A DNA stretch of 63,777 bases, the filler included, from an uncultured Methanosarcinales archaeon (lineage in GTDB: Archaea; Nanobdellota; Nanobdellia; Woesearchaeales; CAZKBD01): assembly GCA_964550945.1 (NCBI GenBank). It is 3 parts of 3 records of this genome, joined end to end, with 100 filler letters (N's around TTAATTAATTAA, not from the genome) between each part and the next. Parts side by side here need not be neighbours in the genome. Positions count along the whole stretch, not along the records: positions 1 to 28,270 come from CAZKBD010000014.1; positions 28,371 to 56,026 come from CAZKBD010000015.1; 1 more part is not named here. One strand, 5' to 3'. Shown piece after piece: positions 3,593 to 40,139 of the stretch. Position 1 is the first letter of the stretch. The number at the start of each line of letters is the position of its first letter. A program made the position numbers and the translations under genes. The notes under the pieces were generated by a model, which worked only from the letters and a program-made list of their open reading frames with translations, had not been told where the DNA came from and did no database searches.

Positions 3593-3730
3593 TCACCTAA
3601 TCTGATTGATTAGCAGATCTTTTTGTATTTGCTGTACAATGTTGGTTGTGTCAAACAAACTATCAAACTCTGATTCTATTGTTTCTGTCTCAAAGCATTT
3701 TCCTTTTTGGCATACAATGTTTTGTTTCAT
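3593..3730 (-). CDS. 45-aa hypothetical protein
   Basis: Manual translation MKQNIVCQKGKCFETETIESEFDSLFDTTNIVQQIQKDLLINQIR*; co-oriented with neighbours. Confidence 0.5.
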   Translation of the reverse strand: MKQNIVCQKGKCFETETIESEFDSLFDTTNIVQQIQKDLLINQIR

Positions 3731-3836
3731 GTCAAGAACCGCCCCACTAAAGTGGGGGCGTGTTCTTGAGCACAGTCAGAAATCGCCCTCTTACTCTCCG
3801 AACTGAAGTTGGGAGATTGCGAGTGGCGATTTCTGA
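3731..3836 (-). repeat. Double-hairpin palindromic element, copy A
   Basis: Minus strand TCAGAAATCGCC..GGCGATTTCTGA CTGTGC TCAAGAAC..GTTCTTGAC; TGTTTCA at 3723-3729 and 3837-3843. Confidence 0.75.
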
Positions 3837-3840
3837 TGTT

Positions 3841-4071
3841 TCAAACCACCTTTATCTTTTCATTAATATCTCTAACAAGCTTGTTTACATCAATACCATG
3901 GCCAATTGCTCCTTGCTCAATGGTTTCCCAGGTTGCGACATGGCAGCCAACGCAGTGCAAGCCATGTTCCAGCATTATCCCTATTGACTCAGGGTATTTC
4001 TTTACAACTTCTCCTATCAGCATGTCTTTTGAGATGTTTTCTTTTTTTGTCGTAATCGTTATTTTTTTCAT
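3841..4071 (-). CDS. DUF1858-domain redox protein
   Basis: IGEVVKKYPE and GLHCVGC..ETIEQGAIGHG motifs. Confidence 0.88.
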   Translation of the reverse strand: MKKITITTKKENISKDMLIGEVVKKYPESIGIMLEHGLHCVGCHVATWETIEQGAIGHGIDVNKLVRDINEKIKVV

Positions 4072-4251
4072 AGCTAATTCTGAATCAAGAATATATATAA
4101 ACTTAATTACTTTTGAATATAAGAAAAAATGGTAAAATCATTATAAATAAAAGGAAAAATATATAAACACTAATCATTTATTGATTAAACTATAGGAAAA
4201 GACATTAATTTTTGTATATAATAAATAATATAGTAATGCCTTTTCCTAATA

Positions 4252-4304
4252 CATAAAAATTGATTTGCAATTTTTAGTACAAGAAATGCTTAAGCATTTC
4301 TATG
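4252..4304 (-). repeat. Compact double-hairpin element, probable family member
   Basis: Minus strand AGAAATGCTTAAGCATTTCT TGTAC TAAAAATTG..CAATTTTTA; 4282-4301 is a perfect 20-bp palindrome. Confidence 0.5.
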
Positions 4305-4385
4305 TAAGCAAAGGACAAATAGATTATATGGACTTACGATTATTAGTGTCCTTTGCTATAAATGAAATAAGGCGATCAAATCCGC

Positions 4386-5240
4386 ATGAAGGCAATAAAA
4401 AGAATTTTACAAGCGCAGAGGAATGAGATCACAGAGCACTATATCTACAATAAACTATCTCTTTCTACAAAAGAAAAGCATAACAAAAAAATACTAGGAA
4501 AAATAGCGAATGACGAGTTAAAACACTATAATATATTGAAGAGGCATACAAAAAAAGAAATAAAGCCGAATAGGCTGAAAATCTGGAAATATTACATCAT
4601 CTCTAAACTTCTTGGCTTGACCTTTGGTGTCAAGCTTATGGAAAATGGAGAAAAAAAAGCCCAGATATCATATGCCACTATCGGCACAGCTGATGCAAAA
4701 AATATTGCGCAGGAGGAAAAGGAGCACGAGAAAAAATTGATTGATATGATTGACGAGGAACGCTTAAAATATGTCAGCTCTATTGTTCTCGGACTGAATG
4801 ATGCTTTGGTTGAATTAACCGGAGCGCTTGCTGGATTTTCATTGGCTTTGCAGCAGACAAAGCTTGTGGCAATTACTGGGCTTATAACAGGGATTGCTGC
4901 TTCTTTATCTATGGGCGCATCAGAATACCTGTCAACCCAATCGGAAGGGGGCCAGAAAAACCCATTAAAGGCCTCTATATACACTACTTTTGCTTATGTG
5001 TTGACAGTAATGTTTCTGATATCCCCATATCTAATTTTTAAGAACGTTTATTTCGCTTTGTTCATCACGCTATTAAATGCGATTATAGTGATACTTGTAT
5101 TTACATTCTATATCTCAGTTGCAAAGGATTTTTCATTTAAAAAAAGATTTTGGGAGATGGCTTTGGTCAGCTTAAGCGTGGCTGCTGTATCTTTCGGCAT
5201 CGGCTTGTTGGTAAGGCTATTCTTTAATGTGGAGGTATGA
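4386..5240 (+). CDS. Ferritin-like/VIT1-CCC1 fusion, putative iron exporter
   Basis: N-terminal DELKH and EEKEHE; C-terminal VLGLNDALVE and SMGASEYLS with TM helices. Confidence 0.9.
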   Translation: MKAIKRILQAQRNEITEHYIYNKLSLSTKEKHNKKILGKIANDELKHYNILKRHTKKEIKPNRLKIWKYYIISKLLGLTFGVKLMENGEKKAQISYATIGTADAKNIAQEEKEHEKKLIDMIDEERLKYVSSIVLGLNDALVELTGALAGFSLALQQTKLVAITGLITGIAASLSMGASEYLSTQSEGGQKNPLKASIYTTFAYVLTVMFLISPYLIFKNVYFALFITLLNAIIVILVFTFYISVAKDFSFKKRFWEMALVSLSVAAVSFGIGLLVRLFFNVEV

Positions 5241-5241
5241 A

Positions 5242-5805
5242 ATGCCTAAAAGCGCGTTCCAAAAATTGGATGAATTCAAGAAAAAAATCCATTTTAATGA
5301 AAAGCTTGGGCTGGATGATAGAGACACAACTATCCTCTCATTGGTGCAAAAAAATCCAAATGTCTCGCAAGAGGAAATTGCCAGAAAAATAAAGCTGTCT
5401 CAGCCTTCTGTCGGCGCAAGAATAAGAAAGCTCCAGGAGAAAGGGATTTTATATAATGTTAATGGAGTGAATTTTAGGGTGGTAGATCTGAGTTTAGCTA
5501 AAGTGGATGTGAATGCGACAGACACAGCAGCAATGATCAGCGAGTTTAAGGACTGCCCTTTTTTTATTAATGCGTTAATCACGTCTGGAAGGCATAATCT
5601 CTGCCTGCTCTTTATGGCTACTGACCTTAAGAGGCTGGAATGTATCGTAAATTACCATCTAAGAGGGAACCCTAAAGTAAAAGATGTGGAATTGAATATT
5701 GTCATATCAACTGCTAAGGATTTTGTTTTGCCATTAAATATAGATTATGAGAATAAAAGGCAGCTTGAATGCGACCAGAGATGCATAGATTCTTTGCCTA
5801 AATAA
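5242..5805 (+). CDS. Lrp/AsnC-family transcriptional regulator
   Basis: LDDRD..SQEEIARKIKLSQPSVGARIRKL HTH; Cys-containing tail. Confidence 0.85.
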   Translation: MPKSAFQKLDEFKKKIHFNEKLGLDDRDTTILSLVQKNPNVSQEEIARKIKLSQPSVGARIRKLQEKGILYNVNGVNFRVVDLSLAKVDVNATDTAAMISEFKDCPFFINALITSGRHNLCLLFMATDLKRLECIVNYHLRGNPKVKDVELNIVISTAKDFVLPLNIDYENKRQLECDQRCIDSLPK

Positions 5806-6862
5806 TATTTATTACGCTTTCTTTTTTATTGATCTCAAATATATTTCCTAAAAACTTCTCAACAACATAGATATTTGTTAATGTATGGTTAGTTATTTCA
5901 GTTGTTTTTATCTTTCCACCAAACAATGCAAGCCAGGGAACAAGGTTATCTGCCAGATGATTGTCAACCGGCGCTTTTTGATTTATCTCTTTTATCAGGC
6001 TATTGGCAGCTTCCTGGCCAACTAATTCTGCTTTTTTTCCTAATTCGCCAAGACTGTCTGCTCCTATTGCTGCTCCTGAAGAAAATGCTGCCCATAAAGT
6101 GATTCCTGAGCCTGGGCAAGCAGCGTTGTTGTATTCTGCCTGGATGTTGACTGGGCAATTTAATCTATTCAGAATAAGTTTCGCAGATCTTGCCTGCCTT
6201 TCTGCGACTTCTGCTTTTTCAAGGAATTTTGAAGCGTGCGATATTCCGTTAATCTTAACTAGACTTCCTTGTTCAGTCAATTCAATCTTCTTATTTTCTT
6301 TTCTTAAATATCCTGATAATCCATCAAAATCATTGAAATTGTTCATCCTGTAGGCCGGATTTATTTTGATTTCAACCTCTCCCTGGCCTTTTGGATAATA
6401 GCCGCGGTTTATCAGCTTGGCATCAATATTTGCATATTTTTTTATTATAGGAAGAAGTATGCTTGTAAAATAATCCCAAGGCATGCTCCATTGGGTATCA
6501 CTGCCACCTTTAATATTTAGCTTGATCTTTTTATCTAAAAAGAAGCAAGGCAATAGTAATGATTGCAATAATAAAGTGATTGAGCCAGCTGTTCCAATAT
6601 CAATAGTTAGGTCTTTGGCTTTAATGTCCTTTGGAGTAAACTTAAGATGGTCAGAGCCAAGCTCTGCTCCTTCAACATCCGCATTACAAAGCTCCTGCAA
6701 GGCTTTTATGCAGTATAAGTGCTGGTTTTTCAATCCAGGCTGTTTTCTTCCTTTCCTTATATCTTTCACTTCAAATGGCTGTTTAGTTAATGTGGATAAA
6801 GCTAGAGCTGTCCTTGCGATTTGGCCTCCGCCCTCAAGATAATTGCCATCTAAATATATCAT
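5798..6862 (-). CDS. rtcA: RNA 3'-terminal phosphate cyclase
   Basis: EGGGQIAR, RGYYPKG and VDNHLAD motifs. Confidence 0.95.
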   Translation of the reverse strand: MIYLDGNYLEGGGQIARTALALSTLTKQPFEVKDIRKGRKQPGLKNQHLYCIKALQELCNADVEGAELGSDHLKFTPKDIKAKDLTIDIGTAGSITLLLQSLLLPCFFLDKKIKLNIKGGSDTQWSMPWDYFTSILLPIIKKYANIDAKLINRGYYPKGQGEVEIKINPAYRMNNFNDFDGLSGYLRKENKKIELTEQGSLVKINGISHASKFLEKAEVAERQARSAKLILNRLNCPVNIQAEYNNAACPGSGITLWAAFSSGAAIGADSLGELGKKAELVGQEAANSLIKEINQKAPVDNHLADNLVPWLALFGGKIKTTEITNHTLTNIYVVEKFLGNIFEINKKESVINII

Positions 6863-6895
6863 GAAAATAAAAGAAAAAGAACAACTATATAATAA

Positions 6896-7129
6896 TTACC
6901 AATTAATGTCATCTAATTCTTTGTCCAAGTTTTCTAAATCACTAGAATCTAAATCTGCATTAATCGTGTCAATACCCTCAATCCCTGATTCAACATCTTC
7001 TGTTAATGGCGTATCAGGAGTTACTTGAGCAGCAGGCGTTGCTGCTTCTGGTTTTTGTTCAGGCTTTGTCTCCTTGCACGATACTAACAGCACAGCCAAA
7101 ATAAGGATTATTGCGATTGCTTTTTTCAT
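6896..7129 (-). CDS. Small acidic lipoprotein
   Basis: Signal peptide with LVSC lipobox; ATGA overlap with upstream gene. Confidence 0.7.
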   Translation of the reverse strand: MKKAIAIILILAVLLVSCKETKPEQKPEAATPAAQVTPDTPLTEDVESGIEGIDTINADLDSSDLENLDKELDDINW

Positions 7130-8358: not shown

Positions 8359-8416
8359 TTTAAATCACCTGTGCAGTTGAAAGTGGCTTTTATTTATAAA
8401 TTTATCCCAAGAAGAA

Positions 8417-8779
8417 TCACTTGAACACTGTCTGCAATTTTTTTGTGTAGCTGATGGGATCTTTTTCCTTTAATTTTCTTATCAGGTTGAAATAAGGCAG
8501 AACTTCTTTTTCAATCTCCTTAAACAATCTCTCTCCTCTTCTTGTCAATTCCACCTCTTTGTTATCATAAGTGATTAATCTCTTTTTTTCTAATATCTCT
8601 AGATTTCTGTATAATGCCCGCTCTTGTTTTTTCGCTATCTCTGCTTTTTTTACCAAATCGATAAACGAAACCTTACTTATAGAAACAGCTAATCGCTTGT
8701 CTTTAATCTTATCATTCGCTTCCTCAAACCATTTGCCTAAAGCGTAGAGTATATATTTCTGAACTTTTGAAACCTTCAT
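8417..8779 (-). CDS. Winged-helix-like hypothetical protein
   Basis: ALYRNLEILEKKRLITY..LTRRG pattern. Confidence 0.6.
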   Translation of the reverse strand: MKVSKVQKYILYALGKWFEEANDKIKDKRLAVSISKVSFIDLVKKAEIAKKQERALYRNLEILEKKRLITYDNKEVELTRRGERLFKEIEKEVLPYFNLIRKLKEKDPISYTKKLQTVFK

Positions 8780-8816
8780 ATATTGATGACTGGGGATAAT
8801 AGATATAAAAAAGTTG

Positions 8817-9697: not shown

Positions 9698-9706
9698 CCA
9701 ACCCCC

Positions 9707-10345: not shown

Positions 10346-10504
10346 ATCAAGCTGGAAAGTAGTTGCTACTTATAAATTTTTCGCTTAACATTTTTGAGTA
10401 ACATGGAATGCAAATCTTTATAAATAAAATGTCACTCCCGTTAGATAGATAAAATGGTGCAAAATCACTCCAGTGAATTCTGGAGATTTTTGGAGGGAAT
10501 TAAA

Positions 10505-10939: not shown

Positions 10940-11017
10940 GAACATTTATTTCTTATACTTTCTTTTTTGTTAAAAAACAAATAAACATTTAAATAATAAA
11001 CTATTCTTTGTTATCTG

Positions 11018-12579: not shown

Positions 12580-12633
12580 TATCACTATTAAAATGAAAAG
12601 CTTTTTAATGTTTTCTATAATTGACTGATCCAA

Positions 12634-28157: not shown

Positions 28158-28270
28158 TTTGTTGAATAAAATTCCTTCAGATTAATAAATTTATGCCTTT
28201 AGTAGGCTAAACATGAAACCTCTTTTTAAAAAATTTTAACAACAAAAATGGCAGGCGACGGTCATTTTGC

Positions 28271-28370: not shown

Positions 28371-28375
28371 TGTGA

Positions 28376-28759
28376 CTAAATTTCTAACATACCACCATGT
28401 CTATTGACTGGTGGTTCTTGATAAACCGTAAAATGATCAAAAATCCTTCTACCACTATATGGGCTTGTTACCTCTAAACCAAGTAGGTAATCGCTAATAG
28501 TATAAGTAGCACCCCCAATATCCTTACGCTTTTTATCTTCATATTGTAAAATAAATTCCTCAAATCTTTCAGGAGCAATCTGCTTAATTAAAGAAAGGGA
28601 TTTAGTGTACCATTTTTGGTAAGCTATCACACTATTAGGCAATACAAGTTGTTTTTCCTTTTGTTCATTATAGCTTTCTAACTCTGCTTTCTCTATATCC
28701 GCGGCTTGGTGTATTAAATCTAAAATTTCCTTCTTTATCTGCTCTTTTTTTGAAGACAT
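28376..28759 (-). CDS. Hypothetical protein, possibly truncated
   Basis: ORF ending a few bases from the contig edge. Confidence 0.5.
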   Translation of the reverse strand: MSSKKEQIKKEILDLIHQAADIEKAELESYNEQKEKQLVLPNSVIAYQKWYTKSLSLIKQIAPERFEEFILQYEDKKRKDIGGATYTISDYLLGLEVTSPYSGRRIFDHFTVYQEPPVNRHGGMLEI

Positions 28760-28815
28760 ACTGGTCAGAAGTTAATCTGTTACCTTATATAACATTTCCT
28801 GTTATTGGGTGTTGG

Positions 28816-28971
28816 TTAATCTGTGGCCGTTAAACTTCGGCTGTTAAGTATCGGCTGATTTACTGCTTTCTGTAATAAATCCTTCCATAAATCGCTTTCA
28901 TTAATCTTTGCTCTTTGTGCTGGTGTTTGCCGTTCCAATGCTTGATGTGGTCTTAGCAATTTGTAATATAC
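28816..28971 (-). mobile_element. DDE transposase / integrase-core C-terminal remnant
   Basis: VYYKLLRPHQALERQTPAQRAKI..LWKDLL resembles the Y-N-x-x-R-P-H-x-x-L-x-x-x-T-P-A motif; in-frame stop just upstream. Confidence 0.65.
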
Positions 28972-29094
28972 CTATTTTCTATGTTATCTCTTATCGTTTC
29001 AGTTTATTTATAGTCTACAGTACACACGTTTACGAAAGTTTTAAAAAGAACAGCACTTATATTGTTTTTGAAAAAACATAAAGAGGTGATTAAT

Positions 29095-29115
29095 ATGCCA
29101 GCAAAACATGGATAG
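29095..29115 (+). CDS. Putative 6-aa micro-ORF MPAKHG
   Basis: GAGGTGA RBS, 5-nt spacer, ATG CCA GCA AAA CAT GGA TAG. Confidence 0.35.
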   Translation: MPAKHG

Positions 29116-29129
29116 AGGAGGCGATTTAA

Positions 29130-30032
29130 ATCGATTTTTTTATCAAATACCACAAAATTCTGATTTATTTCGTTTCGCTCTTTCTAATAATCACTGGATA
29201 CTTATACAGAATTGATTTCTTATGGCAAATTGGTGTTGTGACTATCTTATTTGAATTGACTATCAACTATTACAAAGATAGGATACTATATAAGCAAATT
29301 GAAAAAGTTTTAAGGAAAATTTTAGGTATCGAAGACACCACCACAAGATTTTACCCAAGCATGGTCAATTTGATCTATCATAAAGATTTTAATATAGTAA
29401 AAAGGATCATAAAGAATAGACTGGTAAAAACTAACAAAAGTAAACATTCTAATCTAGGGCTGATCTCAGAGGAAATTATTGAGATGGTGCCTCAAAGAGA
29501 AAACATCCATTACGTCTTCTTTAGGGGTTCTGGAGAGGATGAACCCCCTCAAGTTACTATGATTAAATGTGAGGGAGAAAATCTTACTGAAATATTTGAT
29601 CCTAATTCAGATAAAGAAATAGTAAAAAATTGTGATGATAGCGACGTTTGTTTTACTGTTAGAAAGAAACTAGAAAAAGGAAAAAAGTATGTATTCACAG
29701 TTATAACTAAATACCCTCTCTGTATGAGTGACCTTACAATACCTATTCCAGAAGATAAGCTAAATGATTTTAACAAAAAGTATCAAAACATGGATGAATT
29801 TGAATATTCTTTTTTAATGCCAACTCATAATTGCGAAATCAAAATAGAATTCCCATTTAGTTTGAAAAAATACAAGTTACACATAACCAGAGAAAATCCC
29901 TCCATTTCTGAGGTTATCAGTTTAGATAGACATCCGGATACAAAAATTGACAAAAAAAATAATAAAATCAGAATCAATCAATCTAACTTAGTAGGTAGAG
30001 AGATAATACGGGTTATGTATTCCAAAAAATAA
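29130..30032 (+). CDS. Membrane-anchored hypothetical protein; start uncertain
   Basis: Frame of ORF 29238-30032 stays open back to ATC 29130 and adds a TM segment; GGAGGCGA lies 5 nt upstream. Confidence 0.6.
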   Translation: MDFFIKYHKILIYFVSLFLIITGYLYRIDFLWQIGVVTILFELTINYYKDRILYKQIEKVLRKILGIEDTTTRFYPSMVNLIYHKDFNIVKRIIKNRLVKTNKSKHSNLGLISEEIIEMVPQRENIHYVFFRGSGEDEPPQVTMIKCEGENLTEIFDPNSDKEIVKNCDDSDVCFTVRKKLEKGKKYVFTVITKYPLCMSDLTIPIPEDKLNDFNKKYQNMDEFEYSFLMPTHNCEIKIEFPFSLKKYKLHITRENPSISEVISLDRHPDTKIDKKNNKIRINQSNLVGREIIRVMYSKK

Positions 30033-30137
30033 AAATCATAATTTCTCCCCAATCTTTTTAAACCACAAGTTTTATAAACATAAACAATCATTAGCTGTTT
30101 ATAATTAATTATAGCTATAAAAAAAGAGGTGGATTAA

Positions 30138-30629
30138 ATGGCGGATGAACCTTACGAAATTCTCCCTTACAGAGAGGTTTCTTCTTTAAAAAAAGACATT
30201 TCCGATCTTAAACAAAAAATGGGAGATGGCTCTTCAAAGCAATTAGCGGATTCTATCGCAAATCTCTCAAAAACAATGGAGAATATGCTTAATCTGTTTC
30301 AGTCAGCAGCAGAAGAAATGAGATTAGAAGAAAAAGGAGTTAGCTCTGATTCATCTGCGATACTGGCCGAAATAGACAATAAGCTAGACGAATTAATCGA
30401 CCAGAACAAAACAATAGCAGAAGGCATTGTAGCAGTAGCTGACATGATAAAAGGAGAAACTCAACAATCTGAGCAAGAGCAAAATGTAATGCCTGCCCAG
30501 TTTTCAATGCCTCCGCCAGGGCCTGCTCCATCATTTGGGCCAAGGCCAATGGAAATGCCTGAGCCAATACCAACGCCATTAGGAGCTTTCCCGCCACCCA
30601 CAGAAAGACCTAAAAGAAGCTTCTTTTGA
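30138..30629 (+). CDS. Coiled-coil protein with Pro-rich tail
   Basis: ORF with GAGGTG RBS. Confidence 0.75.
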   Translation: MADEPYEILPYREVSSLKKDISDLKQKMGDGSSKQLADSIANLSKTMENMLNLFQSAAEEMRLEEKGVSSDSSAILAEIDNKLDELIDQNKTIAEGIVAVADMIKGETQQSEQEQNVMPAQFSMPPPGPAPSFGPRPMEMPEPIPTPLGAFPPPTERPKRSFF

Positions 30630-30632
30630 AGA

Positions 30633-31118
30633 ATGGAATATCCTTCTAAAATAAGTCATCAGAAATTAAAAAATTTTTTTAGGCATATCTGTGTAGTCAC
30701 TAGAAACTATCAGGAAAAGGAAACCGCAAATAAAAATCTAAAAAATCAAATCGGCAAAATAAGAAGAATTTCTGAAAAGTCCAAGAAAGGCAAAGTTGAA
30801 AAAGAAATAAAAAAATTAGAGAAAAGAATATCTGATGTGCTGGATAAGGAATCGAAACTATCGAGAGTAGGAAGAAAGGAATCATCAACAGTCAGAGAAT
30901 TGAAATCTAAACTGAAACGAATGGAAAAAGAGCTGGCAGCAACAAAAAGAAGCAGAGATATCCAGTTGTCAGAAAACAAATCCAGGATAGAAAAGCTAAG
31001 CAGGCAATTATCATTTCTTAGGTCTGAAGTAACCAACCTTATGGAGATCAAAACAGCTAGACAAAGAAGAATCGACGAGATAGAGAAAAAGATCAGGGAT
31101 GTAGAAAAACTAAGCTAA
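30633..31118 (+). CDS. Basic coiled-coil protein
   Basis: Heptad-rich ORF, 3 nt after the upstream stop. Confidence 0.7.
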   Translation: MEYPSKISHQKLKNFFRHICVVTRNYQEKETANKNLKNQIGKIRRISEKSKKGKVEKEIKKLEKRISDVLDKESKLSRVGRKESSTVRELKSKLKRMEKELAATKRSRDIQLSENKSRIEKLSRQLSFLRSEVTNLMEIKTARQRRIDEIEKKIRDVEKLS

Positions 31119-31285
31119 ACATCCTTTCCCATCACTGTTTTTCTTCCGTTTGCTTTTGCCCTTTCAATCGCTTTTTTTATCAGCTCTTCTACCTTACTGT
31201 TCAAAATAGGCATAAAATCGCCCGCTAGATTAAGCTCCCCTATCCTCTTTTTGATCTGAGTCCTTACAACCAATGAGTCAGCCAT
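31115..31285 (-). CDS. 56-aa histone-fold protein (DUF1931-like)
   Basis: Manual translation MADSLVVRTQIKKRIGELNLAGDFMPILNSKVEELIKKAIERAKANGRKTVMGKDV*; GGAGGTG RBS. Confidence 0.85.
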   Translation of the reverse strand: MADSLVVRTQIKKRIGELNLAGDFMPILNSKVEELIKKAIERAKANGRKTVMGKDV

Positions 31286-31297
31286 TTTTGCACCTCC

Positions 31298-32962
31298 TTA
31301 ATTATGGGTAAACCAGAATTTATCTTCGCTGTCTAGCCTCACAAATCCAAATCTCTCAAATTGGCAGACATCGCCAATATTCAGGTTATAGCTTTCAATA
31401 ATCCCCTTGCGGATTGATTTATCCGGCATCAATACCTCCACTGCACTTAGCTTATTTTTCGGCAGCCAATGGATTATCTTTTCACCCTCTTTTTTATACT
31501 TTTCATACTCCAAAGAATCAAAAACAAACTTTCCTTTCATCTTCCTGAAATTCAAGCAATCCATCAGCCTGTATAGCTTATTATCCTTAATCAGTTCAAA
31601 ATCCTGTTTTGTGATATAAAACTCATCATTAGTCTTGAATTTTCTCCCTCCTTTCTTGTTATCAGGATGCAAATCCAGCTCGACATCAAGCATTGGAGCC
31701 TTGTCAATCTTTATTGCAACAGGATCCCAGACAAAGAAATAGCGGTTTGCTATTGGCTCGATCACATCCCTGTTAAAAGCGTCAATTATCTTAAAAAATT
31801 CTTTCTTGCTTACTTTTTTATCATTTAAGCTGACTCCAACATCAAGGGAATATTTGATAAAAGCTTCTGGCTGATAACCTCTTCTTCTTAAAGCATCCAA
31901 AAAAGGCAGCCTTATATCATCCCAGCCAGAGTAAGTGCCATCTTCTATTAAAGGCCTTGTTTTGGAGCAGCTGACCTGCATATCCTCAAAATTAATCCTG
32001 CCGACAAATAATGCTTCTGGAAATTTCTTGTTTAGATACTCATAGATATACTTTTGCCTGATGGAATTATCATGATGGTCTTTTGCCCTTATCACGTGCG
32101 TTACTTTCATCTCAATGTCATCAACAGCAACAGCCATATTCATCAAAGGCCATACCCTGTATTTTTTTCCTGCTTTTGGATGCTCGCTGTCATTAATCCT
32201 GAAAACAGGAAAATCCCTCATCGCAGGATTTTTATCATTTAAGTTTGTTTTAATCCTTACAACAGCATCTCCTTCTTCGTACTCTTTAAACATCTTCTTC
32301 CATCTTTTCATTGTTTCTTTCGCATCTAATCTTCTGCAAGGGCATTCTATTGATTTTAGAAGCATCTCTTTAAACCCATCTTGGTCACAGGTGCAGACAT
32401 AAGCTTTTCCAAGATTGATAAGCTCTTCCATGTATCTATAATAGATTTCCAATCTTTCTGACTGCACAAACACTTTGCTGATGTTATTTTTAGTGATCCA
32501 CTTTGCATTTTCTTCAATCAGTTTATAGCTTGGCTTGTAAATATTCTCTGGATTTGTGTCTCCGATCCTTAAGATCATCTCCCCTTTGTACTTTCTGCAA
32601 TATTCAGAATTCAAGCTTAAAACATAAGCATGGCCAATATGCAATGGCCCAGATGGAGAAGGTTCAAACCTCATTACCACTTTTCCTTTAACATCTTTTA
32701 GCTCAAGCATCTCTTTCTTCTGTTCTTTTTTCTCCTCCAGTAATTCAGGCGCTAATTTCATCAATTTTGCCTTCTGCTCTGCAACTGGGATCTTACTAAT
32801 ATCATTTATAACTTGAGAAACAGATTTTGCTAACTCTGCAATATCCTTTTTAAGGTCAGGATTTTCCTGCAATACTTTCCCAATAACCGCTCCCTGATTA
32901 GCTTTTCCATTGTATTTTACAGCATTCTGCAAAGCATATTTCAGTATTAATTCATTACCCAT
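31298..32962 (-). CDS. gltX: Glutamate--tRNA ligase, archaeal type
   Basis: YALQNAVKYNGKA, RFEPSPSGPLHIGH, QFERFGF. Confidence 0.97.
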   Translation of the reverse strand: MGNELILKYALQNAVKYNGKANQGAVIGKVLQENPDLKKDIAELAKSVSQVINDISKIPVAEQKAKLMKLAPELLEEKKEQKKEMLELKDVKGKVVMRFEPSPSGPLHIGHAYVLSLNSEYCRKYKGEMILRIGDTNPENIYKPSYKLIEENAKWITKNNISKVFVQSERLEIYYRYMEELINLGKAYVCTCDQDGFKEMLLKSIECPCRRLDAKETMKRWKKMFKEYEEGDAVVRIKTNLNDKNPAMRDFPVFRINDSEHPKAGKKYRVWPLMNMAVAVDDIEMKVTHVIRAKDHHDNSIRQKYIYEYLNKKFPEALFVGRINFEDMQVSCSKTRPLIEDGTYSGWDDIRLPFLDALRRRGYQPEAFIKYSLDVGVSLNDKKVSKKEFFKIIDAFNRDVIEPIANRYFFVWDPVAIKIDKAPMLDVELDLHPDNKKGGRKFKTNDEFYITKQDFELIKDNKLYRLMDCLNFRKMKGKFVFDSLEYEKYKKEGEKIIHWLPKNKLSAVEVLMPDKSIRKGIIESYNLNIGDVCQFERFGFVRLDSEDKFWFTHN

Positions 32963-33126
32963 ATTCCTGATTTAATATTGATTGATATTTAAATGTATGT
33001 GGTTTTGGATTTGATGTGATAAACGTGACTAAACAACATTATCCATTTTGTAGTGATTAAACTAAGAAATATTTAAATAGACAACCCCATTCACACTGGT
33101 TAATTGTTCATGCTGGGGGGAGAGTT

Positions 33127-34473
33127 ATGGCAAAAGATGGCAGTTATAAAGATTGTTATATGCAGCTTCCAGATGGCACAATAAAAATGAGGGATCCTTT
33201 CACTGGCACGGTTGTCAGGGTGAACAAAGAAAGGGCAGCAAGGTTTCCTGCAGAACCGAGAGAGAAGCAGCCCATAAGCCCAGAAATACCTTGCTTTTTT
33301 TGCCCCGGAAATGAACATACCACTCCTCCTGAAAAAAGCAGAGTCCTGTCAAGAGACGGTGAATATATTGTCCATCCAAGGTTAGATCCGGACCAAGTTC
33401 TGACTGATCAAAATTGGGAATTCAGAAGAATACCTAATCTATTTGAAATAGTTCCTTTTAGGTATTGGGGGATGAATTATCATTATGAACCATCTGACAG
33501 GAATAGGCAATGGGAAGAGCGATATCTAGCTTCAGATATGGGTAAAGCGCATCTTATTGGCGGAATGATTGCAGGTAAACCAGTAATTGGTGTAGTTAAT
33601 CCCAAATTAAAAAGCTCAGGGAGAAACCCTGATGAAGTTAGCGAAGAAGAGAAACTTCTAATTGCAGATGCATTTTTCTCAGGAGCACATGAACTGATCA
33701 TCCCAAGAAGGCATTTTAGAGAAGGAGCAACATATCAGCATGAATTGCACTCATCAGGTGACTTCACTCCAAGAGAGCATTTTGAATATATGAAATACGC
33801 TATTGGAGCACTTAGTGATATATATGAAAATAATAGGTATGTTAGATTTGTAAACGTCTTCCAAAATTGGCTTGACGCAGCCGGCGCATCAGTAAAGCAT
33901 CTCCACAAACAATTAGTTGGCAATGATGAATGGGGTGAGAATATAGAAGGCCTTGTGGCACTTGTTGCATCAGACCCTAATGTGTTTAATAGCAGAGGAG
34001 TAAACCTTCACAGCCAGCATAATCTTGTTTTTGCTGAAAATGAGCATGCTATCGCTTATGCTGCAATAGGAACAACAAATCCTGCAATTGTAATATTTTC
34101 TAAAAGTAAAGGAAGTACGCCTATGGATTTAGCTGAAGAAGAACTAAATGGATTTAGTGATATCTTGCATGGATGCCATGCAGCAATGGGCTCACAGTTA
34201 CCCAATAATGAACAATGGTTTTATACTCCAAAAGATTCTGAATACCAAATCCCATTTCATGTACAAATAGATTGGAGACTTAGTCTGCCTGCAGGCTTGG
34301 AGTATATTTCAAGGATTTATATAGCTCTTATGGGACCTGAAGATGTTAGAGATAAGATGGTGCCTGAACTTCATAGGCTAAAAGATGCTGGAAGAATAGC
34401 GCCATTCAAAATCGAAAGAGAGTGCCAATGCAGTCCAAATTGCCTGAGATATGTTGATAACTCACATCAATAA
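33127..34473 (+). CDS. DUF4921-like GalT/HIT-superfamily protein
   Basis: PDGTIK..PFTGT, CFFC, FQNWLDAAGASVKHLHKQLV. Confidence 0.75.
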   Translation: MAKDGSYKDCYMQLPDGTIKMRDPFTGTVVRVNKERAARFPAEPREKQPISPEIPCFFCPGNEHTTPPEKSRVLSRDGEYIVHPRLDPDQVLTDQNWEFRRIPNLFEIVPFRYWGMNYHYEPSDRNRQWEERYLASDMGKAHLIGGMIAGKPVIGVVNPKLKSSGRNPDEVSEEEKLLIADAFFSGAHELIIPRRHFREGATYQHELHSSGDFTPREHFEYMKYAIGALSDIYENNRYVRFVNVFQNWLDAAGASVKHLHKQLVGNDEWGENIEGLVALVASDPNVFNSRGVNLHSQHNLVFAENEHAIAYAAIGTTNPAIVIFSKSKGSTPMDLAEEELNGFSDILHGCHAAMGSQLPNNEQWFYTPKDSEYQIPFHVQIDWRLSLPAGLEYISRIYIALMGPEDVRDKMVPELHRLKDAGRIAPFKIERECQCSPNCLRYVDNSHQ

Positions 34474-34922
34474 AAATCTCCCTTATTATAAATAATCGGC
34501 TCTTCATCACTCAAAACTTCTCCATCAACAACCTCTCCAACAAAAATTGTATGGTCGCCTGCATCGCATTCATTGACAACCTTGCAGTCTAGCCAGGCAA
34601 TGCAGTCTTTTATGATTGGTGCTCCTGTTGCTTTTGCTTCAAATTCAATGTCCTTGAGTTTATCAACATTCTTCCCTGACTGCATTCCAAAATGCCTTCC
34701 AACTTCAATATGATCTTGCCCTAACACATTTACTGCGAATATTTTGCTTTTTTTGATTAAATCATGGCTGTATCTTGTTTTTCCAACGCTTATCATAACC
34801 ATCGGAGGCTGCATTGACGCTCTGCTCACCCATGCAACCGCTAACCCATTCAATTTATCTCCAAGCTTTGTTGTAACAATATGGACGCCAGTTTCAACTT
34901 TCCTGATTGCTTTGTCTATCAT
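34467..34922 (-). CDS. Flavin reductase-family protein
   Basis: FAVNVL, GAPII, GDHTIFVGEV. Confidence 0.92.
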   Translation of the reverse strand: MIDKAIRKVETGVHIVTTKLGDKLNGLAVAWVSRASMQPPMVMISVGKTRYSHDLIKKSKIFAVNVLGQDHIEVGRHFGMQSGKNVDKLKDIEFEAKATGAPIIKDCIAWLDCKVVNECDAGDHTIFVGEVVDGEVLSDEEPIIYNKGDFY

Positions 34923-34985
34923 TATGATCACCAAGATAAAGAAAAATGGCAAAATTTATAAGGTTTCTTATTCATAACTCCGATC

Positions 34986-35708
34986 ATGCAAAAAAGAGGG
35001 GCATTAATCTTAATATCATTTACTATATTCTTATTATCTTTAGCCATAATACATGCTGTAGCCTATACAAATTCTGGAGGCACTGGAAATAATGACAGCA
35101 ATTCGCCAGACAGCTTGGATCAGCAAACAAATGAATCTTGTTTTGATGGAACAAAAAACGGAAATGAGACAGGCATTGATTGCGGAGGCCCTTGTAATCC
35201 TTGTCTAAATCAAACTGCTCAGCAAAATGATTCTGATCTTAACAATCCTGTACAGGACAGTTTTAACCCTCTGCCTCAAATAATGGGTAGTAATTCTGGT
35301 GCAGATAACAATCTGAACAACCCTGCTCCAGATAATGGCTCCAATCCCATTAATCAGGAAGGAGAAATTACGCAACTAAGCCCTAAAAAAATCAATACTC
35401 CTTTTATAGTCTCCCTTGCTGTAAATGTTTTTCTTTTAGTCACTTTTGTTTCCTTTACATTAATATCCAAAAAGAAGAAACCTCCAGTTAAGCCAGCGAT
35501 TACAGCGATTAAACCAGCGATTATGCCACAACCGCAACAGACGGATCCTTATGTGATTAACTTACGGAATTACATCGAATATTACACAAAGCAAGGATAT
35601 GATCCCAACCAAATACGCCAATATCTAATAATGCAGCAAAGATGCCCTGTCCAAAAGGTTGATGAAGCGTTTAATTCTGCGAGAATGGGGGATGAGCTAA
35701 CCCAGTAA
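34986..35708 (+). CDS. Secreted single-TM protein with CxDGxxNGxETxxDCGGPC motif
   Basis: Signal peptide, Asn-rich linker, TM, C-terminal helical module. Confidence 0.75.
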   Translation: MQKRGALILISFTIFLLSLAIIHAVAYTNSGGTGNNDSNSPDSLDQQTNESCFDGTKNGNETGIDCGGPCNPCLNQTAQQNDSDLNNPVQDSFNPLPQIMGSNSGADNNLNNPAPDNGSNPINQEGEITQLSPKKINTPFIVSLAVNVFLLVTFVSFTLISKKKKPPVKPAITAIKPAIMPQPQQTDPYVINLRNYIEYYTKQGYDPNQIRQYLIMQQRCPVQKVDEAFNSARMGDELTQ

Positions 35709-35894
35709 ACGACAGTTTAGCCCTTCTTCTTGTTTTGTAGTATCTCTTGAGTGAATAAAAAACCGAAAGATTTAAATATTAGTACTTCCAGAAACTATAC
35801 ATTAGAGCCAAATAATGGCTCCTTCTCTGAGTTGTCTCATTGAAGATTTTCAAAAAAAAGTTTAGCTAAGACGTTGGGGTTTAATTGTAAAATG

Positions 35895-36048
35895 TCAGAA
35901 ATTTTCCACCAGTTTGTAACTGGTGGCTGAAAGCCAAAACCCATTTGAATTGTGGAAAATTTCTGAGCATGTTCAAAAACCACTGGTCCTTATAGGCAAG
36001 GATTAAGCTTTCGCTTCATTCCACCGGTCTCTGACCAGTGTTTTTGAC
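35895..36048 (+). repeat. Double-hairpin palindromic element, copy B (upstream of tfe)
   Basis: TCAGAAATTTTCCAC..GTGGAAAATTTCTGA GCATGT TCAAAAACCACTGGTC..GACCAGTGTTTTTGAC. Confidence 0.75.
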
Positions 36049-36076
36049 AAGAGGGCAATAGCTGTAAGAGTCTAAA

Positions 36077-36580
36077 ATGGCATTGACTAACAAACGAATA
36101 ACTGAAATAGTAAGCGAAGTTGTAGGAGAAGACAGCATTCCTATAATTGAATTTCTAAAAAACAGGAAGAATATCTCTGAATTCATAATAGCAGATAAAG
36201 TTAAATTAGATATGCAGAAGACCAGAAACATCCTTTACAGGCTCAACACCCATAATATAACCACTTATGTCAGGAGAAAGGACAAAAAGAAAGGATGGTA
36301 TATAAGCTATTGGACATTCAATAAAAAGCGCATTAAAGAGCTTGTTGGCCAGACAAAAAAGAAAAAACTTGAAAAGTTAAAGGAACAGCTAACAAGAGAA
36401 GAAGCCAACAAAAACTCCTTCTTTATATGCCCTCAGGCATGCGCAAGGCTTGATTTTGACCAGGCATCAGAATTTGAATACAAATGCCCAGAATGCGGCA
36501 GTTTGCTCTCACAGCAGGACAATCTAAAAACAATCGAGAATATAAAAGAAAAGATCAAAGAATTGGAATCCGCCAACTGA
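36077..36580 (+). CDS. tfe: Transcription factor E
   Basis: Winged helix with GWYISYW; Zn ribbon CPQAC..CPECG. Confidence 0.9.
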   Translation: MALTNKRITEIVSEVVGEDSIPIIEFLKNRKNISEFIIADKVKLDMQKTRNILYRLNTHNITTYVRRKDKKKGWYISYWTFNKKRIKELVGQTKKKKLEKLKEQLTREEANKNSFFICPQACARLDFDQASEFEYKCPECGSLLSQQDNLKTIENIKEKIKELESAN

Positions 36581-36626
36581 TAAACCAATAGATAGTTTTT
36601 TATACTAATTCCAGAATTTTTCTTGT

Positions 36627-37220
36627 ATGCAGCTAAAAAAGCTTCTGAAGCAGCTTTGGTATTTTATATGGGAAGATGACAGTATATGGAGTTGGATTGT
36701 TAACATAATATTGGCGTTTGTTCTTATCAAATTTATAGTTTACCCAGGATTAGGCTTTATTCTTGGCACTGGCTACCCAATTGTTGCTGTTGTCTCTTCC
36801 AGCATGGAGCATGATTCAAATTTTGATAACTGGTGGGAGCAAAATCAAGATTGGTATTTTGGCAAAGGCATATTAAAAGACAATTTCAAGGCATTTTCAT
36901 TTGTCAATGGCTTTAATCGCGGAGATATTATTATGCTTCATGGGAAAGAACCAAAAGATATAAAAATAGGTGATGTAATTGTTTTTAGAAACAGCAGGCC
37001 TGATCCAATAATACACAGAGTTGTGAAAATCTGGCAGGAAAATAATGCTTATTATTTCCATACAAAAGGGGATAATAATAAAGATTCAATAAAATCCATT
37101 GATCTAGACGAAACAAGAATTAATCAAGAGGATGTTATTGGCGTTGCATTATTCAAGATACCTCTTTTAGGTTATATCAAGATATGGTTTGTTGAATTAG
37201 TACAGCTAATTGTGAGGTAA
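36627..37220 (+). CDS. Signal peptidase I (S26B)
   Basis: VVSSSMEH, IIHRV, TKGDNN. Confidence 0.92.
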   Translation: MQLKKLLKQLWYFIWEDDSIWSWIVNIILAFVLIKFIVYPGLGFILGTGYPIVAVVSSSMEHDSNFDNWWEQNQDWYFGKGILKDNFKAFSFVNGFNRGDIIMLHGKEPKDIKIGDVIVFRNSRPDPIIHRVVKIWQENNAYYFHTKGDNNKDSIKSIDLDETRINQEDVIGVALFKIPLLGYIKIWFVELVQLIVR

Positions 37221-37223
37221 AAA

Positions 37224-37541
37224 ATGTTTTGTCCAAAGTGCGGCTCAATACTGATGCCAAAAAAGGAAGACAGCAAGAAATTGCTTGGCTGTTCTTGCGG
37301 CTATAAGACAAATAAATTGGAATCCGCCACATTAAAGGAAACAATTTCTAAAAAGGAAAAAGCTGTTGAGGTAATTGAGAAAGGCGAATTTGAAACATTG
37401 CCTATAACTCAGATAGAATGCCCTAAATGCAGCAATAAAGAAGCAAGATTCTGGTTAGTCCAGACAAGAGCAGGTGATGAGCCTGAAACTAAATTCTTAA
37501 AATGCACAAAATGCGGCCATACTTGGCGGGATTATGATTGA
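37224..37541 (+). CDS. tfs: Transcription factor S
   Basis: Two Zn ribbons; QTRAGDEP acidic hairpin. Confidence 0.93.
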   Translation: MFCPKCGSILMPKKEDSKKLLGCSCGYKTNKLESATLKETISKKEKAVEVIEKGEFETLPITQIECPKCSNKEARFWLVQTRAGDEPETKFLKCTKCGHTWRDYD

Positions 37542-38308
37542 ATTGGTTTAACTGGCAAATATCTTTTTGCAACTTCTACAACATTATCCGGCTTATGAGG
37601 ATCAACCTCAAGGCACCCACGAGCTTTGTAAAGCGCCAATATATCTGCATATCTTTGTGGATCAGCTGACACAACAACAACAGGAACATATTTGGTGGCG
37701 ACTTCGTCATTCTTTAATGCTGCCATTGCCTCAAAACCCTCTTGATGTTTAGGAGGGCCTGTGTTGTAGTTAACAGCTAGAAATACAAGACCTGCGTTAT
37801 CTTTAATAACTTGTTCAACAACCCACCCAGGTTGGGTGTCTGCGTTAACTTGATGTGTAACTACAAAATAACCGCTGCCAACAAGTTCATTCCTGTATAA
37901 GCCTAAGAGATCAGAATCCCGATGAAATAAAGATATAGTTGGAGTTGTTACATTATAAACAACGTTTTGTATAACCTGTGCTCTAACCGGCTTCCAGATT
38001 AAATGTTCCTCACCAATTTTATCTCTTGCTGCTTTCTTCAAATCTTCGGGAGCGCCTCCTGTAACAACATAAATTGGAACTTCACCATTAACAACTCTAA
38101 TTGCATCAATAAGGTCAACTCCGCTTGGACGTTGGTTCAAGTCAGTAAATACTAAATCATAGTTTGGTTCTTTTTGGAATAGTTCAATACCTTGTGCACA
38201 GAATTCTACAGGAGTTACATTACAGCCACTTCTTTCTAGTATTCTGGTTAAGGACAAGAGTACACTAGGATCATCATCCACAACCAATACTTCCAATTTT
38301 CTTTCCAT
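37532..38308 (-). CDS. Response regulator with tandem receiver domains
   Basis: VLVVDDD, FTD, VVTG, WKP; second degenerate receiver (VPVVVVSA). Confidence 0.8.
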   Translation of the reverse strand: MERKLEVLVVDDDPSVLLSLTRILERSGCNVTPVEFCAQGIELFQKEPNYDLVFTDLNQRPSGVDLIDAIRVVNGEVPIYVVTGGAPEDLKKAARDKIGEEHLIWKPVRAQVIQNVVYNVTTPTISLFHRDSDLLGLYRNELVGSGYFVVTHQVNADTQPGWVVEQVIKDNAGLVFLAVNYNTGPPKHQEGFEAMAALKNDEVATKYVPVVVVSADPQRYADILALYKARGCLEVDPHKPDNVVEVAKRYLPVKPIQS

Positions 38309-38373
38309 AATAACCAGTCAAAATGTATTTGTTTATAAACCTTTCTATTATTATTCACTTTACAGTGGTAATA

Positions 38374-39333
38374 TCAGTAATTAAATCCTTTGCTCTTGAT
38401 GATTTTCCTGTCTTTAGTTATCAGCAACCCCTCAACACCATCCAAAGATTCTATCAATTCAAGGCCTTTCTCAGGCCCTAGAACAAAAACTGTCGTTGAA
38501 AGAGCATCTGCGTCTAATGCTTTATCGGTTATGATTGTAACAGAAATAAGATCAGTTGCTGAATAACCGGTTTTAGGATTGATGATATGATGGAATGACT
38601 TATTCTCATTAAAATACCTTTCATAATCGCCTGATGTTGAAACCGATTTATCAGAAAGGTCTATTATAGTTATATAATCTCCTTTATTCCTGGGATTTTC
38701 CAATGCAATCTTCCATGGCTCATCTATTTTAGAGCCAATTGCCCTCATATTGCCTCCAAGGTTTACCAAAGCGTGCTTTATCCCTTTTTTTTCAAGAACT
38801 TCAATTGCCCTATCAATTGCATAGCCTTTTGCTATCCCTCCAAGAGTTATTTTCATTCCTTTTTTGTTTAACTTTATTGTAGAGCCGTTGATTATTATTC
38901 CCTTGTAACCAATCAGAGTTGATGTTTCTTTTATTTCTTCATCTGTCGGCGCTCTTTTTAGCTCGTTAAAGCTTTCGGTGTATAAATCAAGGATTGGCTG
39001 CACAGTAATATCAAAAGCGCCATCGCTAAGACCAGAGTAATAACCCGACATATTTATCAAATAAGCCAGCTCAGGCTCTACATTCTCCAAAATACCTTCC
39101 TTATTTAAAACTCCAACTTGGCTTTCATTATTATAAATAGTCATAATATCCTCAATTCTCTTAATTTCCTCGAATGCTGCTGCAATAGACTCATTTGCTT
39201 TAGGGGTGTCTTCATCAATAACAATTATCTCAGCAGTTGTCCCCATTAGAATTTGAGATTCTTTTGTTTCAGTCAAAGGAGCGCAGCCGCTGATTAATAT
39301 CAAAAAAAGTATCGCCCATATTAGCTTTTTCAT
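38374..39333 (-). CDS. apbE: FAD:protein FMN transferase lipoprotein
   Basis: ISGC lipobox, GAFDITV, GGIAKGYA, STSGDYE, HHIINPKTG. Confidence 0.95.
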   Translation of the reverse strand: MKKLIWAILFLILISGCAPLTETKESQILMGTTAEIIVIDEDTPKANESIAAAFEEIKRIEDIMTIYNNESQVGVLNKEGILENVEPELAYLINMSGYYSGLSDGAFDITVQPILDLYTESFNELKRAPTDEEIKETSTLIGYKGIIINGSTIKLNKKGMKITLGGIAKGYAIDRAIEVLEKKGIKHALVNLGGNMRAIGSKIDEPWKIALENPRNKGDYITIIDLSDKSVSTSGDYERYFNENKSFHHIINPKTGYSATDLISVTIITDKALDADALSTTVFVLGPEKGLELIESLDGVEGLLITKDRKIIKSKGFNY

Positions 39334-39439
39334 AGGGTGTATGAAATTGGAGTTATATTAAAAACTTTTTGCCAAATGACATAATAAAACCGAAAGGTTT
39401 AAATATATCTTGTGATATCAATTAATATTAAGAGTTATC

Positions 39440-39700
39440 ATGGATATCGCCCAGTATGAATTTGAGATAAGAAGGCATGCTCTTATAAGGGCTATGCAAA
39501 GAGGAGTAACCCCCGATATGGTCGAAGCGACCCTTAAGGGAGGCAAGATAGTAAGATTTGGTAAAAATAATTTGAAATTTTATAAGGAATACAAAAGATT
39601 TACTGTAATTTGTGTTGATCAAATTATTGGAACTGTAATAAAGATTGTAACAATCGAAACCAAGGGTGCTGAGAAATCAAAGATACTAAAACATGCATAG
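39440..39700 (+). CDS. DUF4258-like putative toxin
   Basis: HALIRAMQRGVT..IVT pattern; upstream of antitoxin. Confidence 0.75.
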   Translation: MDIAQYEFEIRRHALIRAMQRGVTPDMVEATLKGGKIVRFGKNNLKFYKEYKRFTVICVDQIIGTVIKIVTIETKGAEKSKILKHA

Positions 39701-39716
39701 CATTTTTTGTATCTCT

Positions 39717-39772
39717 TAGAAATCTTTGATTTCAAAGAGATTTCTGGCACCTCCAAAAATAAATTTTTGTAG
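39717..39772 (+). repeat. Double-hairpin element, copy C
   Basis: TAGAAATC..GATTTCTG GCACC TCCAAAAAT-AA-ATTTTTG; further nested IRs back to about 39668. Confidence 0.6.
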
Positions 39773-39782
39773 GTGATTCAAA

Positions 39783-40139
39783 ATGAAAAAACTTCAAAAA
39801 TCAGAGATGTTTGACAGTGCTAATAAACGCAAAGCGTTTAAGACGTGCACAGAATGTAAAGGAGATATGAAGGAGTTATCAGCTAAAACTCCAGAAGGAT
39901 TTGAATACAAATATTTTAGATGTGATAATTGTGGAGAAGAAATTTTGGATATGAACCAATTACATAATGTTGCTGGAAAATATAGGGCTATGAAGAGGTT
40001 TAATGCAAAGATTTCCAAGTGGGGGATGAGCTTAGGATTAAGAATACCTAAAGAATTGGTGCAAAAGTATCACTTCAAGGATAATGAAGAAGTAACTATG
40101 ATTCCAGAGGAAGAAGGTATAAAGATTATACCAATATAA
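39783..40139 (+). CDS. Zn-ribbon plus AbrB/MazE antitoxin
   Basis: CTEC..CDNCGEE; KWGMSLGLRIPK. Confidence 0.85.
   Translation: MKKLQKSEMFDSANKRKAFKTCTECKGDMKELSAKTPEGFEYKYFRCDNCGEEILDMNQLHNVAGKYRAMKRFNAKISKWGMSLGLRIPKELVQKYHFKDNEEVTMIPEEEGIKIIPI
39794..39844 (+). repeat. 51-nt double-hairpin element, copy E, in frame within the antitoxin
   Basis: TCAAAAATC-AGA-GATGTTTGA CAGTGC TAATAAACGC-AAA-GCGTTTAAGAC. Confidence 0.65.

Follow-up and report, generated by a model that had tools for sequence, protein, structure and literature searches.

A mobile double-hairpin family in Woesearchaeota genomes, likely moved by IS200/IS605-type transposases in trans

What are the paired hairpins that recur in a stretch of DNA from an uncultured archaeon of the order Woesearchaeales (assembly GCA_964550945.1), and by what route have they been dispersed? 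The window, that is, the whole stretch of 63,777 nucleotides (nt) analysed here, consists of three joined contigs (C14, C15 and C82) of a 1.97-Mb, 92%-complete genome, referred to below as the source genome. The paired hairpins belong to a genuine family that is dispersed through Woesearchaeota genomes, patchy over the order, and mobile without target duplication, and the host flank of its long forms follows an internal guide by the pattern of the insertion sequence (IS) IS608. We consider it likely, with a probability of about 0.8, that these gene-less elements with IS200/IS605 end hairpins are moved as single-stranded DNA by a Y1 (HUH) TnpA acting in trans.

Statistics on guides, lengths and ends refer to 131 copies, 40 of them from the source genome, parsed with regular-expression grammars; the strict grammar missed 26 of 60 held-out stretches, which by eye are variants of the same plan or interrupted by gaps. 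Each copy consists of two abutting hairpins with the plan TG-TCAGAAAT-(variable)-ATTTCTGA-G-CA/TG-C-TCAAAAAC-(variable)-GTTTTTGA-CA, the slash marking the central joint. This envelope (TG-stem-G-CA/TG-C-stem-CA, with termini TGTCA...TGACA and paired arms) is conserved, each hairpin being closed by 2 base pairs (bp) and a 1-nt bulge. Elements are 49-210 nt long, gene-less and too short for a transposase. With a parser that permits only some dinucleotides, covariation between the terminal and the central dinucleotide of a module is found on the left in 129 and on the right in 130 of the 131 copies. The centre reads as the end-to-end junction in reverse complement, with two bulged bases added. 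What had at first been described as a 5-6 nt linker is really the centre of a palindrome, CA/TG, which pairs with the element termini. Long copies enclose left and right end hairpins of the IS200/IS605 kind, each wrapped in an outer stem, whereas 19 of the 131 are short forms without inner hairpins at either end. In IS608, as described in PMC3201880 and PMC5934647, each subterminal hairpin is preceded on its 5′ side by a guide tetranucleotide that base-pairs with the cleavage site (the papers give the pairs G1:C2 and G2:C1), and insertion occurs 3′ of the site without duplication. The window holds the following copies.

Copy A, 3730-3838, minus strand: 109 nt, member of the double-hairpin family.
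Copy A module 1, 3773-3838: encloses a TTCA-loop IS200-type hairpin; guide CAAT at 3816-3819.
Copy A module 2, 3730-3772: encloses a TTTA-loop hairpin; guide CACG; end TGAC-A.
Host target of copy A, 3839-3843, minus strand: TGAA followed by A, a flank that matches the prediction from guide CAAT.
Copy B, 35893-36049, plus strand: 157 nt, member of the double-hairpin family.
Copy B module 1, 35893-35969: guide TTTT at 35902-35905; inner hairpin at 35906-35926.
Copy B module 2, 35970-36049: inner hairpin at about 36021-36040; guide CATT; end TGAC-A.
Copy C, 39792-39845, minus strand: 54 nt, short form without inner hairpins.

The first-pass annotation had proposed a family of five copies. Its double-hairpin plan stands at A and B and, more loosely, at C, with the bounds shifted to those above by the closing 2 bp and 1-nt bulge; its other two members (4252-4304 and 39717-39772) lie off the grammar and resemble a sister family, the latter probably starting near 39666. 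The interiors are unrelated among the three window copies, as had been stated, but fall into homologous subfamilies genome-wide.

The genome scan against composition controls that had been suggested came out clearly: the strict junction RTTYYTGA-N6-TCARRAAY occurs 42 times in the source genome versus 0, 1 and 0 times in three order-5 Markov controls, and with one substitution it occurs at 49 places versus none in the reversed and complemented genome. A structural scan of the source genome that used no motif gave 26 sites, 25 of which belong to the family. The signal of the window alone is weak (2 exact junctions; 7 at two mismatches, a count attained in 3 of 100 shuffles, whose mean is 3.05). 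Across the order, the junction was detected in 82 of 401 genomes, four of the surveyed genomes being flagged as unpublished, with one match to a reversed control pattern; it was found in none of 62 genomes from other orders of the class and in no viral contig, while full copies are also present in one Pacearchaeota-titled and one Aenigmatarchaeota-titled assembly. At least 118 stretches in sequence records bear the junction, and among the 80 listed most have Woesearchaeota or Nanoarchaeia titles. The title 'Methanosarcinales', seen on 18 junction-bearing stretches, is treated as unreliable because some of these coincide exactly with loci from genomes that are assigned to the same order as the window. 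Locus L115 (Methanomassiliicoccaceae title) has the junction without hairpins and was left out of the counts.

Mobility can be read from empty sites, and here the proposed comparison with relatives was informative for one pair of elements. A contig of another study (one contig, depth 2.4) lacks both copy C and the neighbouring region D described below, reading M-K-K-C-T where the window has 18 extra codons, and the empty/filled pair for copy C shows no target duplication. Conserved tnpA alleles (L171, L191, L204) are split by copies at exact codon boundaries, again without duplication, and the same holds for nested copies (C16, C20, C59, C64, C68, L056, L069). No target duplication was found in any empty/filled pair examined, with a 1-base ambiguity staying for long forms. 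Among the joints listed for contigs aligned to 28400-46800, none skips copy B. Four of six candidates examined in the source genome (C48, C101, C6, C15) lie in frame within genes, in both directions. The proposal of a non-autonomous mobile element in a DPANN archaeon is thus supported by empty sites, the lack of target duplication, patchy distribution and some in-frame copies.

The 5′ flank follows a consensus of approximately T-T-R-A-H-R (position -3 is A in 120 of 131 copies, and position -1 is a purine in 126 of 131), and no comparable consensus exists in the 3′ flank of the same copies. The location of several copies about 30 nt or less from a start codon is likely a by-product of the TTRAHR target, since this target would overlap stop codons and A/T-rich gene junctions. 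The TGA in the target of copy A is the stop codon of a DUF1858 gene, and the final A of this copy together with the following TG forms the ATG of a short downstream open reading frame (ORF). A TFE gene (36077-36580) lies 28 nt downstream of copy B, and copy C interrupts a zinc-ribbon/MazE-domain gene (39783-40139) behind its third codon, with the reading frame preserved.

The inner hairpins of the long forms can be assigned to known ends. Weak Y1 matches in relatives led to a divergent TnpA clade (alignment A1; 1103 homologues), whose tnpA genes are flanked by hairpins of the CCACCAGTC...GACTGGTGG type at 110 loci (the best 80 of 250 metagenome matches and 30 genome loci; this set includes L291, from an unpublished genome). 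Right ends with a short spacer comprise 32 distinct sequences, 29 of which obey the IS608 rule (shuffle mean 11.4, maximum 18), and those of L238/239, L266 and L267 read CATG-hairpin-TTCTTGAC, as in module 2 of the element. Profiles built from autonomous ends only, searched at E<=0.01, gave 18 right and 15 left matches in the source genome, both inner hairpins of copy B among them, versus none in the reversed genome. A second inner type with TTYA loops, as in copy A, matches canonical IS200 ends (L164, L168, L172, L026), and IS200 elements of both hairpin types are present in the source genome or linked to it. Hairpin type agrees between the two ends in 66 of 69 classified copies (T1-T1 45, T2-T2 21, mixed 3), and a free mixing of modules was rejected at the level of hairpin type on the strength of those 3 mixed copies among 69. 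Many autonomous A1 right ends have an outer stem of their own around the end hairpin (L213, L226, L289, L295), a possible origin of the envelope.

Do the host flanks obey these ends? The left inner hairpin was parsable in 70 copies, and the tetranucleotide preceding it was tested against the host flank at -5 to -2. G4:C4 pairs in 64 of 70 (shuffle mean 26, maximum 39), G1:C2 in 52 (mean 27.8, maximum 40) and all three pairs, G2:C1 included, in 36 (mean 6.2, maximum 15), and neither of the two neighbouring registers rose above the shuffle maximum. Among 13 parsable copies out of 25 new ones (60 held-out stretches, same parser), the corresponding counts were 13/13 for G4:C4, 10/13 for G1:C2, 11/13 for G2:C1 and 8/13 for all three (mean 2.7, maximum 7), the last being the sole held-out count above the shuffle maximum. 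Rare guides follow rare flanks (TAAG-TAAC, CAAA-TGAT, CAAG-TGAC, TACA-TAAT), and on the other side the right guide is CAYG in 47 of 63 copies, with right end TGAC. Complementarity across many guide variants is a stronger point than the shuffle statistics. The G4:C4 pair also fits the combinations AAAG/TTAC and GAAT/TCAA printed in PMC3201880 and PMC5934647. The elements differ from IS608 in having neither tnpA nor tnpB, in a constrained fifth base (R) at both ends, and in short forms that end one base later; shifted cut positions have a precedent in PMC4810608, and the site TTGAT/G of ISDra2 is one for a +1 preference. In these short forms, the end lies one base beyond TGAH and the targets are less strictly defined. 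A guide role of their central CAYR would agree with the rule, although the fourth pair of such a guide coincides with the pair that closes the stem.

In the mechanism that we propose, TnpA would bind the inner hairpins on one strand and cut after the host target and after the right end, the donor would be sealed, and the excised circle would be pasted 3′ of a new target picked by the guide, a course of events established for IS608 (PMC3201880 and PMC5934647). Type-1 copies, B among them, would be moved by the A1-clade TnpA, and type-2 copies, A included, by canonical IS200 TnpA. The circle may fold into a dumbbell, given that the centre mirrors the end-to-end junction with two bulged bases added. 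The forms of approximately 50 nt without inner hairpins, such as C, might be mobilised in this way too, the central CAYR possibly serving as guide, and this is the weakest step. In copy B, the outer stem and the left inner hairpin differ by under 3 kcal/mol, a competition that could act as a switch.

Candidate enzymes are at hand. The A1 proteins have kept HUH in 115 of 120 and a Y-x-x-x-Q motif in 119 of 120, and among solved structures they are closest to the Deinococcus TnpA group (2fyx, 2xm3; E 5e-9). They score 45-52 bits against the NCBIfam IS200/IS605 model, just under its cut-off, versus at most 20 bits, also under the cut-off, against the model of REP-associated tyrosine transposases (RAYT; REP, repetitive extragenic palindrome). 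The search for an HUH TnpA, which the first-pass annotation had recommended together with RAYT, was apt, and its outcome favours classical IS200/IS605 ends with internal guides over a REP/RAYT system. The statement that no mobilising enzyme is visible in the window must be revised, since one part of such an element is present:

IS200-family right end, 28371-28422, plus strand: start of contig C15, with tnpA codons C-D-stop, guide CATA, hairpin and end TGAT.

Over 37 nt, this end and that of the tnpA-bearing locus L273 on the right side show 100% identity; the rest of the window element is unassembled. Three contig ends of the source genome carry an A1-clade right end and three a left end resembling L284-L286; its A1 right ends start with the codons C-D-stop or F-C-D-stop, as in 17 of 120 homologues, and joining the flanks in C144 and C15 restores one open frame of 260 codons, the best of nine pairings. 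Because of these three right and three left ends at contig ends and the restored C144/C15 frame, a three-copy A1-type IS has likely been collapsed out of the assembly. The gene so split (260 amino acids, aa) consists of window positions 28376-28759 on the minus strand plus C144, and its window part has no Pfam match. The source genome also holds two canonical IS200 tnpA pieces, whose close homologues have TTTA-loop ends; the ends of this type are unlike the envelope. Both pieces (L001 = C153; L002 = C146) lie directly upstream of apparent diversity-generating retroelement cassettes, with a target gene carrying a variable repeat, a template repeat and the start of a reverse transcriptase. No TnpB was detected in the source genome; RRXRR/IscB was not detected there either, in a search whose control matched nowhere and which is therefore uninformative. 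Among 101 candidate stretches from viral contigs, there is no A1 relative.

Several observations weigh against transposition by TnpA under guide control. With regard to guides, the left one is not parsable in 61 of 131 copies (19 of them short at both ends), and G2:C1 pairs in 54 of 70, equal to and not above the shuffle maximum of 54, a pair that is no test in type 2 copies since their parser demands A at G2. Copies within a subfamily are kin and not independent, so that shuffles overstate significance. The TTTT subfamily fits the register -4 to -1 at least equally well; its member copy B pairs at three of four positions at -5 to -2 and at all four at -4 to -1, and its right guide CATT mismatches TGAC at the fourth pair, as in 8 copies like that. 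Short forms end one base past the guide-read tetranucleotide and the paired autonomous copies diverge right after it, while in long forms the register is unreadable, base -1 being the same as the last base in 87 of 88. With regard to structure, inner hairpins are absent from both ends of the 19 short copies, the exact TGTCAGAAA left end or the envelope was seen in no autonomous element, and the predicted circular fold closes both feet for copy A only. With regard to enzymes, the A1 tnpA gene is not in the source assembly, and A1 tnpA is not enriched in carriers (junction in 6 of 24 A1 genomes versus 82 of 401 overall, p=0.6); the IS200 type of the source genome is weakly enriched (8 of 20, p=0.04, in genomes that are kin and not independent). 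A Y1_Tnp match was found in 8 of 20 high-copy genomes and in none of the other 12, and the autonomous-type T1 right end in none of five high-copy genomes. Nor does general Y1_Tnp presence follow the element (4 of 9 junction-positive versus 10 of 51 negative relatives). This poor co-occurrence could result from assembly loss or past activity.

It should be considered whether the envelope is the real substrate of another enzyme (an attC-like tyrosine recombinase, a topoisomerase or an HUH protein of another sort), with the inner hairpins as inherited passengers. The envelope is the only part common to all copies, the 19 copies without inner hairpins still insert cleanly, the bulged bases and covarying feet resemble folded recombination sites, TnpA co-occurrence is poor, and one tyrosine recombinase is encoded in the source genome. 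The attC site of integrons folds as one unit, has RYYYAAC/GTTRRRY cores and belongs to a cassette array accompanied by IntI. In the present family, the hairpins abut in pairs and the copies are dispersed. Hairpin types that agree between the ends are not expected of passengers, nor are host flanks that differ at each copy and still obey the inner guide over many variants, and no gene family is recurrent beside the elements (among 719 neighbouring ORFs no cluster occurs at more than 4 loci, and the 30 clusters listed include no mobilising family). We therefore regard a separate enzyme acting on the envelope as unlikely, and most plausible for short forms only. An RNA explanation, in which the family is a structured non-coding RNA or a cis-regulatory leader near start codons, had been raised in the first-pass annotation. 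It would account for strong folding (z-scores of -8.4 for copy A, -5.0 for copy B and -5.3 for regions D and C together) and for the copies about 30 nt or less from a start codon. The elements show no strand bias to neighbouring genes, the downstream gene being on the same strand in 21 of 40 copies of the source genome, on the opposite strand in 15 and not called in 4; contexts are unrelated, in-gene copies read in either direction of the frame, a relative lacks C and D at the same site, Rfam has no match within the window, and the host flank covaries with an internal DNA guide. A structured RNA is hence very improbable as the primary nature of the family, with a secondary effect of the elements on transcripts being possible.

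A REP/REPIN-like family close to the CGTC/TGTC-tagged REPs and spread by a domesticated RAYT would agree with ends that both begin with TGTC, with inverted paired hairpins, with a mostly intergenic location and some in-frame copies in genes, as in PMC3733652, and with the label 'RayT' that some sources give to A1 homologues. As described there, inverted hairpin dimers bear TGTC on the outside, a dedicated transposase is not known, and these REPs are defined by an unpaired CGTC/TGTC tag, an 8-9 bp stem, a 4-5 nt loop and a CCA tail. In the present elements, the tag is paired and covarying, the interiors are long, variable and provided with IS200 hairpins, and there is no CCA tail. The A1 proteins fit the IS200/IS605 model far better than the RAYT model, as reported above, and their genes are located in multi-site IS elements with guide-ruled ends, not between repeats. 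Unlike the REPtron arrangement, in which a RAYT is flanked by repeats, no element lies beside the Y1 genes in 30 loci, and copies at tnpA loci are insertions into the gene. Such an origin appears rather improbable.

Movement by TnpA in trans, the reading that we prefer, brings the family close to several described systems. Palindrome-associated transposable elements (PATEs) of Haloquadratum walsbyi are, according to PMC3119063, gene-less, with near-terminal palindromes related to IS605-type ends, no target duplication and terminal-only forms down to 52 bp, and are defined as being without terminal inverted repeats. Our elements share the lack of genes, near-terminal palindromes of the IS200/IS605 kind (in long forms), the absence of duplication, internal guides and a length too short for a transposase. 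They differ in the inverted-repeat termini TGTCA...TGACA, the outer stem round each end, a centre that mirrors the end-to-end junction, and one envelope that holds ends of two hairpin types. The family works like a PATE but is not filed as one, because PATEs by definition have no terminal inverted repeats. The same paper describes small mobile repeats (SMR-A) in H. walsbyi, of approximately 110 bp, with inverted termini, no target duplication, insertion into PATE/IS605 palindromes, copies more than 95% alike and termini unrelated to any transposon, whose mobilisation was called enigmatic. The inverted termini and the lack of duplication are shared, and short forms here nest in IS605/PATE-type palindromes; in contrast to SMR-A, compared by description only, the right end here is that of the autonomous elements L266 and L267, and copies are diverse. 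The in-frame copies in genes recall Rickettsia palindromic elements (RPE). A classical miniature inverted-repeat transposable element has the terminal inverted repeats of a DDE-type IS and a target duplication; such a duplication was not seen in the empty/filled pairs, and no search was aimed at DDE families. In the open-access literature searched, we found no description of the family or of an envelope of two abutting hairpins, and such derivatives are not among the content of the archaeal IS200/IS605 survey PMC13343696 in the portion available.

An abundant, unannotated Woesearchaeota repeat is in this way tied to a named mechanism and to candidate enzymes, and a 150-aa protein and oligonucleotides could therefore be used to test its mobility. 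Natural guide variants are numerous, each with its matching host flank, and provide a genome-scale check of the IS608 guide rule in archaea; the envelope and the 50-nt forms that lack a guide are relevant to the question of how SMR-A-like and CGTC-type repeats are mobilised. As regards annotation, genes gain 18-50 spurious codons from the copies, start codons are displaced and assemblies become fragmented. A more speculative idea, which we put forward tentatively and with some doubt, is that the envelope is a portable chassis folding any IS200 end pair into a closed dumbbell and accepting two or more TnpA clades, the form of approximately 50 nt replacing inner hairpins with a central CAYR guide. 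If true, this form would be among the smallest natural Y1 substrates, and the idea could account for the movement of 'orphan' repeats such as SMR-A and the CGTC REPs, which have inverted termini and leave no duplication.

Two further regions of the window lie outside the main family.

Region D, 39666-39772, plus strand, bounds approximate: sister two-hairpin family, GTGCTGAGAAAT...ATTTCTGGCAC plus a second hairpin, with nested hairpins.
Region E, 4252-4304, minus strand: outside the main grammar on inspection of the sequence.

Simpler forms of the region D element occur at L311, L191 and L204. Judging from its sequence, region E probably belongs to the sister family; an empty site was not detected for it. 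A second enveloped family in the source genome has the same inner hairpin type and other outer stems (TCTCATTTTCCAC... / AAAATCCGACC...), with right guide CATA and end TGAT (C148:700-850, C4:53040-53190, C58 end, C42:13850-13990, C17:1120-1260, C96 start; 5 left ends counted). Another two-hairpin insert (GGAAAC...TTTCC-TAG-YGCA...) occurs in four copies of the main family, at an identical place in their right inner hairpin (C16:21070, C25:18505, C28:12847, C68:9924), and a different element lies exactly inside the central CATG junction of four copies in the source genome (C24:13512, C45:11228, C68:10003, C81:136). L317, L320, L321 and L326 (G433) are four copies of one variant in similar contexts, perhaps part of a larger repeated unit. 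A reading as a bulge-helix-bulge intron was dropped on inspection, the bulges being of 1 nt and on one strand. Further short repeats common to contig ends are found at window positions 28216-28270, 56127-56181 and 61936-62021 (shared with C44, C157 and C55/C24), and many contig ends of the source genome cluster into repeat families, which are likely further collapsed IS elements. ARAGORN reported only 12 tRNA genes in the whole source genome, most with introns, and several of its tRNAs seem to be interrupted at non-canonical positions.

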